Origin: a virus
Virus record (IMG/VR): IMGVR_UViG_3300009151_000034
Coordinates: 85,098-149,097 of that record
Length of the DNA stretch: 64,000 nt
Reading direction: 5' to 3' (one strand)
Shown: in pieces, positions 59 to 16,710 of the stretch
Position numbering within the stretch: position 1 is the first letter of the stretch
Layout of the letters: every line of letters starts with the position of its first letter
Notes under the pieces: generated by a model
Told to the model about the DNA's origin: nothing
Database searches by the model: none
The model's input: the letters and a program-made list of their open reading frames with translations, nothing else
Translations under genes and position numbers: made by a program

Positions 59-274
59 CTATAAAAACTTATTTTCGACTTTAAATATTCCTGCACAATA
101 ATTCTCTGCCATATCATGTGCATAGTGCATGTTATGATCTTTACATTCTTGTAAATCTAACATGATATCATCTTTATAGAATTCTATAAAGATGGTCATG
201 CCAATAACAGAGATGGCAGATTTTAGTCTGCCATCCTTGCTATAATATACTTCATTATGACTCGGTAGACTCAT
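59..274 (-). CDS. Hypothetical protein between uvsX and gp41
   Basis: 71-aa ORF overlapping the uvsX stop, in the operon. Confidence 0.65.
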   Translation of the reverse strand: MSLPSHNEVYYSKDGRLKSAISVIGMTIFIEFYKDDIMLDLQECKDHNMHYAHDMAENYCAGIFKVENKFL

Positions 275-1298
275 TCTCCATCATCTCCCCTTGTGCCATA
301 GTATACTTGTTCTTAATCCATGATGCGAAGTCTGTTGTCTTAAGAACATCTTTCCAAAACTCGGAATTATTATCGATCTCAGATGCACGATAATTCTTGC
401 TGAGTTCACCAGTTTCCTTATCAACCTTGGCATACCATCCGTTCTTTGGCTTTACAATATAGCCTGCTTCAACTGCCAAGTCAAGTAGTCCTGACCATTT
501 ATTGATGCCACCGTCATAAGAAACCGTAATAGGAATTTTTGACTTTTCTTTGACGTAACGAGACTTTTCGACATTAATGATAAAGTGATAACCTTTGATT
601 TCTTTATCATCCTTATCTTGCTGGCGACCAAGAATCCAAATATTATCAGCACCATAATATGAACCAGTGCCACCACCTACAATATCTTTCGGATATAGAC
701 CGATTTCTTTGTAAGTATGATTAATCACAACCATAGGAATATCCTTAAGTGTTAACTTGGCTGTCACAATGCGGAAGAAAGACTTGAGAGCTTTTGCTCG
801 TGTCATATCAGCAACAGTCTTACCTTCGATTGCGTCTTCGGTTTCTTTCTTGGATGCAAGATTTCCAATCGAATCAATAACAATAAAAATTTTATCCTCT
901 CGACTTAGTTCTTTCAATTGAACCGAAAGATCATGCTTTAGTTCTTCCACATCGGTAACGGGTGAGTGAATGACCGAATCGTGCGGAATATTGAAAGTAT
1001 CAAAATATCCTTGAGGCGTTCCAAATTCTGAATCATAAAACAAAATAAGACCATCCTTATACTTACGAAGGAAAGCAGAAGCCAAAAGTAAAGCAAACCC
1101 GGTCTTAAAATGTTTTGATGGTCCTGCAAGCATTGTTACACCTGGGGTAATTCCACCATCAAGTGAACCAGAAAGTGCCACATTGATCATTGGAATTGGT
1201 GTAGGAATCATATCTTTTTTAGAATAAATTTTACTCTCACTAAGCATAGAAGTATGTTCGAGTGTAGAGTTCTTGATTAGCTTATCACGTAGAGACAT
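255..1298 (-). CDS. uvsX: RecA-like recombinase UvsX
   Basis: P-loop AGPSKHFKT, YDSEFG, IDSIGNLAS. Start MSLRDK with AAGGA SD. The frame stays open upstream to 1478 (see findings). Confidence 0.95.
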   Translation of the reverse strand: MSLRDKLIKNSTLEHTSMLSESKIYSKKDMIPTPIPMINVALSGSLDGGITPGVTMLAGPSKHFKTGFALLLASAFLRKYKDGLILFYDSEFGTPQGYFDTFNIPHDSVIHSPVTDVEELKHDLSVQLKELSREDKIFIVIDSIGNLASKKETEDAIEGKTVADMTRAKALKSFFRIVTAKLTLKDIPMVVINHTYKEIGLYPKDIVGGGTGSYYGADNIWILGRQQDKDDKEIKGYHFIINVEKSRYVKEKSKIPITVSYDGGINKWSGLLDLAVEAGYIVKPKNGWYAKVDKETGELSKNYRASEIDNNSEFWKDVLKTTDFASWIKNKYTMAQGEMMENESTES

Positions 1299-1477
1299 TT
1301 TATTTTCCTTTTGTATGCTTATATTTCGTTTTGAAAGTATTTTACGGGCTTCTCTGAATGCTTCTTTAACTGCATCATATCCCTTTTCATGACCACTTGA
1401 TCTATACCACTCACAATCTGGCGGGCATTCTTTTTCTAGTCCACATCCACAGCCGCCACCATGATCATATTTTGCCA

Positions 1478-2585
1478 TTACATATAGTCCTCCAATGTAA
1501 GTTGTCTTTCTGCTTGCCAACCAATAACATCAAGAATTGAAGTAATTGGATCAAGGAAAGTCTTCTGGAACTGCATATCATAATCCACATACTTCTGCAA
1601 GTCAAATTCATCTGGTAGACTTTCAGGGACCGAAATAACCGTATCCTCAATGATATTAGGCATTCTGAGATAAGCAAACTTAATCTTATCATTTTCACCA
1701 ATCAACGGATATTTGTTGCTCAGTTCTTCGTTATTTTTAATAAGATTGTTATATAACAGAGCGCCCTTCACATGGATTGGAGTCCCTTTGATGTATACTT
1801 CTCCGTCTACTTTGGAGGCATACTTATCAAGTCCCTTCACCCCACGAGGAAAAGCAATATCCTCGAAAGGAAGATTTCTGAAATTATCTTTGAATTCAGC
1901 AATAAATGCTTGGGTAGTTTTTTCATCCTTATTCATAATAATTTCGAGTGCCTTCTTGATATTGACACGGGAAGCCTTTGGAGTTGAAGAACGAACCGAT
2001 TCGATACCAGAAACTTTTACTTGTGGTTCAGAAAACTGCACGCCTTCAATATTCCAGGCATTCAAAATATACATCTTCTTTCCTCGCCAAATACCTTTAC
2101 TGGCAATCGTTTCGCGTTTCATAAACATCTTTTGCTTATATGCATTCATGTAAGACGCAAGTTCTTCATATGACTTGTTAATCATAGGTTGAATTTTTTG
2201 TTCACAGAATTCATCAAGCATCTTGACAATTTGTAGTTCGTCAGTGATGCCAACCTTGTTCACTAGACCTTCCATATCAACATAGATCGAGTCCGTATCA
2301 GATGCAATAAGGTAATCGAAATTTTTGGTCTTGAGAATTCGGTTAAGATATTCATTCATTTTATTTCCGATCCAACGAACGGAAAGTTGTCCTGACATTG
2401 TAATGGCTTCAGCAAGATTGAAGTCAAACCAGCGGAACCAGACGTTACCAAGAGCACCATATGCTGAGTTAAAGTTGCACCTTTTTGGCTAGTTGCAAAT
2501 TATGATACTTTGAAACATCCCTTTCTACCTTTTTCTTGAGTTCAATCAATTCGCTGTCACTTAATTTGCTGTAATCGTCTAACAA
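1478..2585 (-). CDS. gp43B: DNA polymerase B, C-terminal subunit (gp43B), with a +1 frameshift at ~2471
   Basis: TTG start after GGAG. MLDDYSK..QLAKKVQL then +1 frame NSAYGALGN (motif B), SDTDS (motif C), KKMY, GIESVRSSTP, PCNA-clamp-binding-type C-terminus QLTLEDYM. Confidence 0.9.
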
Positions 2586-2647
2586 AACTTATTCTCCAAA
2601 TAACAAAGGTTTGATGTTTTCATCTATAAATAAAATTCCATATTTTT

Positions 2648-4126
2648 TTAGCTTTTAGAAATACCTCTTTTGTTTAGTTCATCATCAATCTTTTGAAGTT
2701 TTTTCTTGGCCTCTGTCATCTTCTCCTTATATTCTACACGGTCGTTATACATCTTTTCCATAAGAGCAGGCAAGAACCCTTGCTTATCCTTACGATACAT
2801 TGTGCCGTTGGCAGCATAAGCATATTCGTCTTGAAGATTACCAAGACTACCTTCTAGCAATTCATCAAGACTAGGCCAACCATCTTCGGCTTTCTCAATA
2901 AATGTTTCGGGTGAAATATTATATTGCATAATCAAATGTGGGTATAGGCTGTTCAAGTCAAACGAGACAACCCACTTGCTAAGGCCCAACCTGGGCTCCT
3001 TGACATAACCACCAATAAGTTCTTGGTCGAAAGTATTGATCTTCATTCTTGGAACAACAATGCATCGATCCATCAGGTAATTGTGAATGATAATATCCCA
3101 AGGTCGAACCGTAGTAAAAGTGTCAGCATAGTTTACCTTGGCGTCATATGCGAAGGCGATGACCTGTTCGATAAACTTTAACTTTTCTTCAAGTAGATCA
3201 ATGAGCGTAACGTCATGCACGTTGTAGTCAATGAACATTTCGAAGTTGCGCTGATACATATCATCAAGTGAAACATATCCTTCGGTTTTGTAATCAAGCT
3301 TTTTCTGACCTAAGACCTTCTCGGCAATATGATCTAGCTTATAGCTTTCTTCGTTACCAAAAGAAAACTTCTTATATAATGCATAATAATCAAGCACATT
3401 GATACCGGCAGGAACATACACAGTCATTTCCTTGCCGTGGATTTCAATTTTACGCTCGTTCAAAAATCCCCAAGGCGAAAGAAGATTTGCTTCTTTGTTA
3501 CCAAGTATACGTTTGATACGATTTACTATATACGGAATATCAAAAAATTCTATGTTCCAACCAGTGATAATATCAGGAAGAAATCGACCTGACTGCCATA
3601 CACGGAGAAATTTGGTTAATAAATCATGTTCGTCTTTGCAATGAAGATATGTTACTTTATCTGACTTAGACTTGTATGGTTTAAGACCCAATACTACCTT
3701 TTCACCACGACGACTAACCGTGATTGCCGTGATTTCTTTATCTGCCGTTTCGATATTAGGAAACCCACCAGAGGAATCTGTTTCGATATCGATGCTGATA
3801 ATATTGATCTTACCAACATCATAATGAATATCACCATGAAAATTATCATAGATATAAAGATACGCAAAGTTTTCAAGACCATAGATAGGCTTGCCTGAAA
3901 CATTATCAAAAATCTTAAGATGATCTTTGGCTTCTTTAATAGTATTGAATGGCATCTTGATCAGCGGAGTTCCATCCAAAAGACGAAATTCTGTCTGAGC
4001 ATTCTTTGGTGCTAATTCGAAAAGATAGGGAGAATATGGGATTTTTTCAGCTACACGTTCGCCATTCTTATAACCACGAACATAAACCTTGTCACCTCTA
4101 GCAAAAACATTAGTATAAAAATCCAC
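2648..4126 (-). CDS. gp43A: DNA polymerase B, N-terminal subunit (gp43A: exonuclease and motif A)
   Basis: DIET exo I, GWNIEFFD exo II, YNVHD exo III, SFDLNSLYP motif A. Ends in the fingers region. Confidence 0.93.
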   Translation of the reverse strand: MDFYTNVFARGDKVYVRGYKNGERVAEKIPYSPYLFELAPKNAQTEFRLLDGTPLIKMPFNTIKEAKDHLKIFDNVSGKPIYGLENFAYLYIYDNFHGDIHYDVGKINIISIDIETDSSGGFPNIETADKEITAITVSRRGEKVVLGLKPYKSKSDKVTYLHCKDEHDLLTKFLRVWQSGRFLPDIITGWNIEFFDIPYIVNRIKRILGNKEANLLSPWGFLNERKIEIHGKEMTVYVPAGINVLDYYALYKKFSFGNEESYKLDHIAEKVLGQKKLDYKTEGYVSLDDMYQRNFEMFIDYNVHDVTLIDLLEEKLKFIEQVIAFAYDAKVNYADTFTTVRPWDIIIHNYLMDRCIVVPRMKINTFDQELIGGYVKEPRLGLSKWVVSFDLNSLYPHLIMQYNISPETFIEKAEDGWPSLDELLEGSLGNLQDEYAYAANGTMYRKDKQGFLPALMEKMYNDRVEYKEKMTEAKKKLQKIDDELNKRGISKS

Positions 4127-6738: not shown

Positions 6739-6812
6739 TGGTAGCGATTGAAGGAATCGAACCCACATTAGCGGAGTCAAAGGCCGCCGTCCTACCGTTG
6801 AACGAAATCGCC
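6739..6812 (-). tRNA. tRNA-Gln(TTG)
   Basis: GCGG-CCTTTGACT-CCGC, TTCGATT, CCA end. Confidence 0.88.
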
Positions 6813-13052: not shown

Positions 13053-13129
13053 TGGTAGCCACAGTTGGATTTGAACCAACACTTTGCAGATTTTGAGTCT
13101 GCTACCTCTGCCAATTGGGTTATGTGGCC
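13053..13129 (-). tRNA. tRNA-Leu(CAA), short variable loop
   Basis: GCAGA-CTCAAAA-TCTGC, TTCAAAT, CCA. Confidence 0.9.
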
Positions 13130-16628: not shown

Positions 16629-16636
16629 TGCTTATG

Positions 16637-16710
16637 CTTCCTAGCCTGGACTCGAACCAGGGACATTCTGATTAACAGTCAGATGCTACTACCAACTGAG
16701 CTACTAGGAA
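16637..16710 (-). tRNA. tRNA-Asn(GTT)
   Basis: TCTGA-CTGTTAA-TCAGA, TTCGAGT. Confidence 0.92.

Follow-up and report, generated by a model that had tools for sequence, protein, structure and literature searches.

The DNA polymerase of a T4-like myophage found in freshwater (lake) metagenomes is encoded in two pieces, and the second of these, gp43B, very likely depends on a programmed +1 ribosomal frameshift. This view comes from the arrangement and conservation of the nucleotides at the shift site. The explanation that best accounts for the observations as a whole, and which we consider probable, is that gp43B is formed only by a +1 frameshift after codon 38, at a site that lies within a mobile cassette based on a homing endonuclease gene (HEG). 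Full-text literature searches found no published description of the gp43B frameshift site.

The split polymerase gene and its probable shift site

The source record is 149,097 bp long with direct terminal repeats and 37% G+C, and is rated 100% complete. The window, by which is meant the entire stretch of DNA analysed here, is its last 64 kb (64,000 nucleotides). Megablast of the window against named phages gave no match. The nearest named relatives of its gp43 are those of cyanomyoviruses, with approximately 56% amino acid identity, all of which are unsplit. In the window gp43 lies on the minus strand and is split into gp43A and gp43B, with a 62-nt spacer between them; the break falls at the tip of the fingers domain. 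The gp43A gene (2648-4126, minus strand) encodes 492 amino acids, which include the exonuclease domain, the N-terminal part of the palm, where motif A lies, and the first helix of the fingers, followed by a C-terminal extension that ends, in the list of open reading frames, with LQKIDDELNKRGISKS before the stop. It matches the Pfam families DNA_pol_B_exo1 and DNA_pol_B, and it can be aligned to RB69 gp43 from residue 270, its C-terminus matching up to about residue 506.

The second cistron begins in frame 0 with a TTG codon (2585-2583) preceded at 8 nt by a GGAG ribosome-binding site (2597-2594). The frame-0 segment (2469-2585, minus strand) contains 38 sense codons from the TTG start and then TAA. 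It consists of an N-terminal extension followed by SKYHNLQLAKKVQL, which in the alignment of six lineages is homologous to the stretch that the cassette has replaced. The +1-frame segment (1478-2470, minus strand), of 330 codons and a stop, encodes NSAYG of motif B, DTDS of motif C and the thumb. When gp43B is read with one +1 step, the product has 368 amino acids and matches residues 531-897 of RB69 gp43 (E 1e-63). Taken together, the two pieces have the features of a T4-family PolB, namely the exonuclease domain and motifs A, B (KxxxNSxYG) and C (DTDS), and these are collinear with RB69 gp43.

The shift site on the minus strand reads AAG (2483-2481), GTG (2480-2478), CAA (2477-2475), CTT (2474-2472), TAA (2471-2469) and C (2468). 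The preliminary description of this DNA had given the same reading from the TTG start and GGAG onwards, and its coordinates proved to be exact. It had also claimed that motif B is complete only after a +1 shift, and this is borne out by the alignment to RB69 gp43, which is free of gaps across the site and places the AAG codon at K560 and AAC at N564. The slippery CTT_T occupies 2471-2474, T2471 being the extra base, and the frame-0 TAA (2469-2471) is followed by C2468. An internal Shine-Dalgarno (SD)-like AGGTG (2478-2482) lies 3 nt 5' of the shift codon, inside the invariant AAAAAGGTG. The motif AGGTG-NNN-CTTT-stop occurs only once in the 149-kb genome.

The +1 frame is open only from 2488, and AAC TCA GCA TAT GGT (NSAYG) begins at 2470 in that frame, which ends with a stop at 1478. 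No ATG, GTG or TTG is present in the +1 frame of the window before NSAYG, and the other lineages are without the downstream ATG (ITKSGQ, ITLSGQ, ITQCGQ). A search of the complete 149-kb genome for a second family-B polymerase found none. Since there is neither a start before NSAYG nor a second PolB, motif B would be made only by recoding at CTT.

Conservation of the site and the proposed slip

The same +1 shift is required in six polymerase lineages, which have 45-75% amino acid identity. The shifted lineages L001/L102, L003 and L009-L011/L105, the last of which is called here the L105 lineage, came from protein-based scans of viral and metagenomic contigs. A pattern scan added L091/L099, and a scan with the endonuclease as the query, which is blind to the sequence of the site, added L175/L176 and L177. 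No further shifted lineages were obtained in a scan with an alignment of the gp43B N-terminal peptide, and a scan with the gp43B of L175 returned only those already known. An apparent frameshift in L270 was rejected: it coincides with a tandem duplication that spans motif B and is about 70 nt long (L270:315-2104), there is another near the start of the contig, and it looks like an assembly artefact.

The string AAA AAG GTG nnn CTT y AAC is invariant in all six lineages. The slippery sequence is CTT_T in five and CTT_C in one, with CTT itself invariant, and the spacer codon between AAGGTG and CTT varies (CAA, TGT or AGT). A conserved CTT-stop in related gp43B genes had been envisaged earlier; the CTT was found in all six lineages, whereas the stop was not, since TAA-C is present in the window and four other lineages and CAA-C in the L105 lineage. 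The C is invariant. In the L105 lineage frame 0 continues for 14 more codons past the site. In L177 a +1-frame TGA overlaps GTG-AGT, two codons before the site, and therefore the shift in this lineage is confined to the AGT or CTT codon. Synonymous changes in the flanking DNA follow frame 0 upstream of the site and frame +1 downstream. This pattern of substitution indicates that purifying selection is acting in both frames across the six lineages.

These results also bear on the reality of the extra base. The difference is a single base next to a homopolymer in a metagenome-assembled genome, and the preliminary description had cautioned that it might be a homopolymer or assembly error. Contigs assembled by Logan from runs X3, X4 and X6, which belong to three other studies, span 2468-2483 with no gaps, an identical 18-mer is present on independent metagenome contigs, and more than 10 metagenomes have this base as well; the caution is thus refuted. 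None of the runs listed for this stretch was an RNA run. Neither an error of sequencing or assembly nor a polymerase gene that is decaying and non-functional is a credible explanation in view of this recurrence, of the selection in both frames in six lineages, and of a genome that is complete with terminal repeats and has no other PolB.

It had been suggested that the AGGTG would arise in any case from the Lys-Val codons. Unsplit alleles, of which about 55 are unique, read AAR ATY CAR YTN AAY at this position. At the -3 codon 50 of them have ATT or ATC and one has GTG; AGGTG is present in one of the approximately 55, and CTT is used for the Leu codon in only 16. None has AGGTG together with CTT, and therefore ordinary coding at this position does not account for the SD-like element, contrary to that suggestion. 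In the six shifted lineages AAGGTG and its 3-nt spacer are invariant. The codons AAG, GTG and AAC are minor ones in this phage genome. SD tetramers precede 46% of the long open reading frames of the phage compared to a background of 5%, and initiation of phage genes in the host is SD-led. With the 3' end of E. coli 16S rRNA, AGGUG would presumably pair with anti-SD bases about 2 nt further in than those paired by the AGGGGG of prfB, so that the effective spacing may differ from that in prfB.

In the proposed mechanism, peptidyl-tRNA-Leu would occupy CUU in the P site with the slowly decoded UAA-C in the A site, and pairing of AGGUG, 3 nt upstream, with the 3' end of 16S rRNA would stimulate the slip. 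The tRNA-Leu would re-pair from CUU to UUU, or in the L105 lineage to UUC, which permits better re-pairing than UUU. Asn-tRNA would then capture AAC, and K-V-Q-L would be joined to N-S-A-Y-G of motif B. The tryptic peptide across the junction would be VQLNSAYGALGNVWFR, and ribosomes that do not shift would release a peptide of 38 residues. A slow A site is not universal, since the L105 lineage has in its place CAA, a common codon there. A 'hungry codon' account of this lineage was rejected, because CAA is the commoner Gln codon in the L105 phage. No convincing conserved RNA structure was detected around the site by RNAalifold in the six lineages (-6.7 kcal/mol, with mostly invariant pairs).

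The frame might be repaired by other means. Transcriptional slippage would find an A5 run 6 nt upstream and a T3 run at the site, but neither run is long enough for it to be efficient, and in L105 the second is only TT. If the frame were moved by -2 on the A run, K-V-Q-L would become R-C-N-F, with the loss of K560, and a TGA would be met in L177. A tRNA with a four-base anticodon could be sought among the 13 that the phage encodes, which include Asn(GUU) and Gln(UUG); all 13, however, have ordinary 7-nt anticodon loops, and no four-base-anticodon tRNA was found among them. Even as a group these routes are very improbable.

With respect to the phage tRNAs themselves, tRNA-Asn(GUU) (16636-16710, minus strand) reads AAC, the first +1 codon, and tRNA-Gln(UUG) (6739-6812, minus strand) reads CAA, the A-site codon of the lineage without a stop. 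A tRNA called Leu(CAA) (13053-13129, minus strand) is 77 nt in length and is without the long variable arm of bacterial tRNA-Leu; its identity may be mis-assigned.

A mobile cassette and the extra base

In the relative L003 a 263-residue open reading frame (L003:1892-2683) fills the gap between 43A and 43B. Homologous ORFs of 263-268 amino acids are present at this position in L003, L091 and L175-L178, the identity being 47% for L091 and 31-36% for L175-L178. Matches to the ORF include PHROG homing-endonuclease families and, for its C-terminal domain, the nuclease domain of I-Bth0305I (PDB 3R3P, E 0.004); on the basis of the latter the endonuclease is assigned to the Vsr-like/EDxHD family. In the window only a remnant is left (2589-2653, minus strand), which consists, by pairwise alignment with L003, of the last 21 codons and the stop. 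Relative to L003 there is a clean deletion of 767 nt with its junction at 2654/2653. Apart from this remnant nothing in the whole genome matches the HEG profile, and loose ends at 2640/2653 reveal HEG-bearing variants of the same phage in runs X3 and X6. Thus the window has lost the endonuclease gene by deletion and retained the recoding site.

Several further features of L003 may be recorded here. A T4 late-promoter-like motif, TATAAATA, is located just 5' of the endonuclease ORF (L003:1852-1891) and is cut by the deletion junction of the window; its position suggests that the endonuclease would be expressed late. The gp43A of L003 is broken again by a second, unrelated homing endonuclease of 230 amino acids (phrog_655) on the opposite strand (L003:420-1112, minus strand; L003:1-1851), and the pieces each have new terminal extensions. 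The polymerase of L003 would therefore consist of three pieces and a frameshift. The UvsX gene of the window (255-1520, minus strand) is uninterrupted, and the UvsX/RecA-like gene of L003 (L003:3800-4711), which lies downstream of gp43B, carries an intein after GGG, with weak Pfam matches to Vint and Intein_splicing that are below the curated cut-offs.

The HEG-less form of the cassette extends approximately from 2453 to 2712 (minus strand) and contains the gp43A tail and stop, the HEG remnant, the gp43B head and the shift site. From allele comparisons, the cassette is made up of the C-terminal extension of gp43A, the HEG or its remnant, the N-terminal extension of gp43B, the short homologous stretch and the extra base. 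For the terminal extensions split inteins can be set aside, because the extensions are too short and the HN of KYHNLQ is native polymerase sequence that unsplit alleles have as well.

One comparison is between L101, which is unsplit, and L102, which has the cassette. These were recovered from different samples; their identity is 99.7% downstream and 98.5% upstream, and their polymerases are identical in protein. Around the site, the only stretch in which they differ runs from -229 to +30, counted from the AAG codon, and the cassette differences end 18 nt after the extra base. Between the window and L102 the cassettes are near-identical and the flanks only about 78% identical. The gp43B of the window is 94% identical in nucleotides and 98% in amino acids to L100, yet L100 is unsplit and unshifted. 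A contig from run X6 tracks the window and then changes to the unsplit allele at 2467/2468, and both alleles, as well as HEG+ and HEG- forms, coexist in single samples. On a quick maximum-likelihood tree of the downstream polymerase (gp43B) the shifted state requires at least six changes. The split and the shift always occur together: neither a split but unshifted allele nor a shifted but unsplit one was present among more than 200 loci. These allele comparisons show that the extra base, the SD-like element, the split and the terminal extensions belong to one mobile HEG-based cassette, and that the cassette moves horizontally between phage backgrounds and is also the cause of the 43A/43B split.

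Why the cassette should carry an extra base can be answered only tentatively. The reading that we prefer, with a confidence a little below even, is by analogy with MobA and the bypass insert of T4 gene 60: the one-base insertion and the Ile-to-Val GTG change would spoil the target of the endonuclease in the DNA that encodes motif B, so that the carrier would be immune to cleavage. A phage with the cassette could then not be cut by its own Vsr-like endonuclease, naive polymerase genes would stay cuttable, and the prfB-like signal would let ribosomes ignore the indel in otherwise invariant DNA. Most single substitutions in the target of I-Bth0305I, which has a footprint of about 60 bp, are tolerated by the enzyme (PMC3239194), and for that reason an indel would protect better than point changes. 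Motif B, for its part, cannot change at the protein level.

The extra T has been lost by no split allele, even in the three HEG-less lineages that coexist with HEG+ phages. Retention of the insertion by HEG-less carriers would need continued exposure to HEG+ phages or another benefit. A rival explanation is regulation. The frameshift might serve as a sensor, the yield of gp43B being tuned by the release-factor or translational status of the host, with its link to the cassette incidental. This would agree with the prfB precedent and with a site kept by HEG-less phages, at which five of six lineages have a stop directly after CTT, always with C, a weak context, behind it. However, TAA is read by both RF1 and RF2, only TGA being RF2-specific, which leaves no means of RF2-specific sensing; the L105 lineage has CAA and still requires the shift. 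Unsplit relatives whose polymerases are 98-100% identical manage without the site, and it was never found apart from the cassette. A sensor of this kind is quite unlikely, and the CAA lineage and the use of TAA instead of TGA make release-factor sensing in particular doubtful. The earlier proposal that synthesis of the polymerase is coupled to release-factor activity is accordingly a weak one.

It is also unlikely that the insertion is a frozen accident with neither an immunity nor a regulatory role. The base would have arisen once, for example by sloppy repair at the edge of the cassette, and would hitch-hike with it, the stimulators serving only to make it tolerable. The extra base is indeed about 18 nt from the right edge, all carriers appear to be descended from one cassette family, and conserved stimulators would be equally expected. 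Against this, the loss of one T from TTT is easy and would restore a normal gene; no split but unshifted allele has appeared in six diverged lineages, three of them without the HEG; and the Ile-to-Val GTG change alters the same conserved DNA.

A separate observation concerns the DNA at the insertion point. In unsplit alleles the DNA that encodes K-I-Q-L-N-S (window 2467-2480; L100, L101 and others) approximates a 14-bp palindrome, of which AATTCAGCTGAATT is a perfect form. In the close unsplit alleles 4.1 of 7 pairs are matched, the centre, at the junction of the Gln and Leu codons, is the best within 120 nt on either side, and it is 3 nt from the insertion point. A pseudopalindrome of this kind might form the core of the target of a dimeric EDxHD nuclease, and is only a weak lead because the sequences are related and coding.

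Significance and comparison with known systems

To our knowledge, hardly any efficient natural +1 sites of the prfB type are known beyond prfB itself, and the T4 gene 60 bypass family is so far the sole case in which a HEG is combined with a recoding element. The gp43 cassette would be a second and mechanistically different case of a HEG that travels with a recoding element, and its site lies in a catalytic motif of an essential phage enzyme. The spacer codon and the A-site codon (TAA or CAA) both vary naturally, and these variants are directly testable. If the proposed role in immunity is true, it would explain the origin of such odd decoding events and, together with T4 gene 60, would make recoding a recurrent, convergent way for free-standing HEGs to invade sequences that are invariant in protein. 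The endonuclease of the L003 type is a candidate long-target nuclease of the EDxHD family. There is also a practical consequence: gp43 is a common marker gene in viral ecology, and gene callers will truncate or split these polymerases.

The published prfB motif consists of an SD-like element, 3 nt, CTTT, a stop and C, with a tRNA-Leu that slips from CUU to UUU (PMC12421855). The preliminary description had likened the gp43B site to it, and the layout agrees: in both, an SD-like element is set 3 nt before CTT_T, and this leads into an in-frame stop and then C. The SD-like element is AGGTG here and AGGGGG in prfB, and the stop, RF2-specific TGA in prfB, is here TAA or is replaced by CAA. Unlike prfB, the present site is in a phage, inside a catalytic motif and on a mobile cassette. 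As the gene encodes a DNA polymerase rather than a release factor, there is no autoregulatory logic, and the gp43B site is thus prfB-like in its signal but not in its logic.

Split polymerases of the T4 family have been described before. The Aeromonas phages 25 and 44RR have a split gp43A/gp43B with a short untranslated spacer or a putative HEG between, and the gp43A/gp43B products are reported to co-purify and to be active (Petrov, Karam; PMC2988022, PMC2677866). In those phages and in the window a T4-family PolB is encoded as two cistrons. In the Aeromonas phages, however, the intervening endonuclease is of the GIY-YIG (seg-like) type, and these reviews make no mention of a frameshift (PMC2988022, PMC2677866).

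Vsr-like/EDxHD endonucleases are known from 'fractured genes', in most of which the pieces are reunited by split inteins; one case that has no intein, an SbcD-like gene with extra terminal residues, has also been described (PMC2677866, PMC3239194). The gp43 cassette resembles these in having a free-standing nuclease between the halves of a phage replication gene. It differs in that there is no intein at gp43, and a ribosomal frameshift accompanies the split.

The closest analogue of the gp43 cassette is the T4 mobA/gene 60 bypass cassette. In T4, mobA and the gene 60 bypass form one cassette, in which the insert blocks self-cleavage (PMC5009743; Manning and Atkins, bioRxiv 10.1101/2022.08.31.505936; Bonocora et al. 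2011 as cited in PMC5009743). In gene 60 a 50-nt insert follows codon 46 of ORF2, with a stop or 'hungry' codon at the take-off site and an SD-like element, and the bypass insert often outlives the endonuclease (PMC5009743; bioRxiv 10.1101/2022.08.31.505936). In both systems a free-standing HEG splits an essential replication gene of a T4-like phage, with conserved C- and N-terminal extensions. ORF2 in each contains a stretch homologous to the replaced sequence and then the insert, after codon 38 here and codon 46 in T4, and the insert is followed by a stop, or in some lineages a sense codon, and is accompanied by an SD-like element. Both cassettes end at or just after the recoding site, are patchy in distribution and often survive the loss of the HEG. 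In contrast, the insert is 1 nt here and would be traversed by a +1 slip of tRNA-Leu, whereas in gene 60 there is a 50-nt hop of tRNA-Gly between matched GGA take-off and landing codons. The target here is motif B of a polymerase and in T4 a topoisomerase, and the endonuclease is Vsr-like/EDxHD here and the HNH enzyme MobA in T4. Protection from cleavage has been shown in T4; for the gp43 cassette we only infer it. In view of its 1-nt insert and Vsr-like endonuclease, the gp43 cassette would work in the same manner as the MobA elements without being a member of that family.
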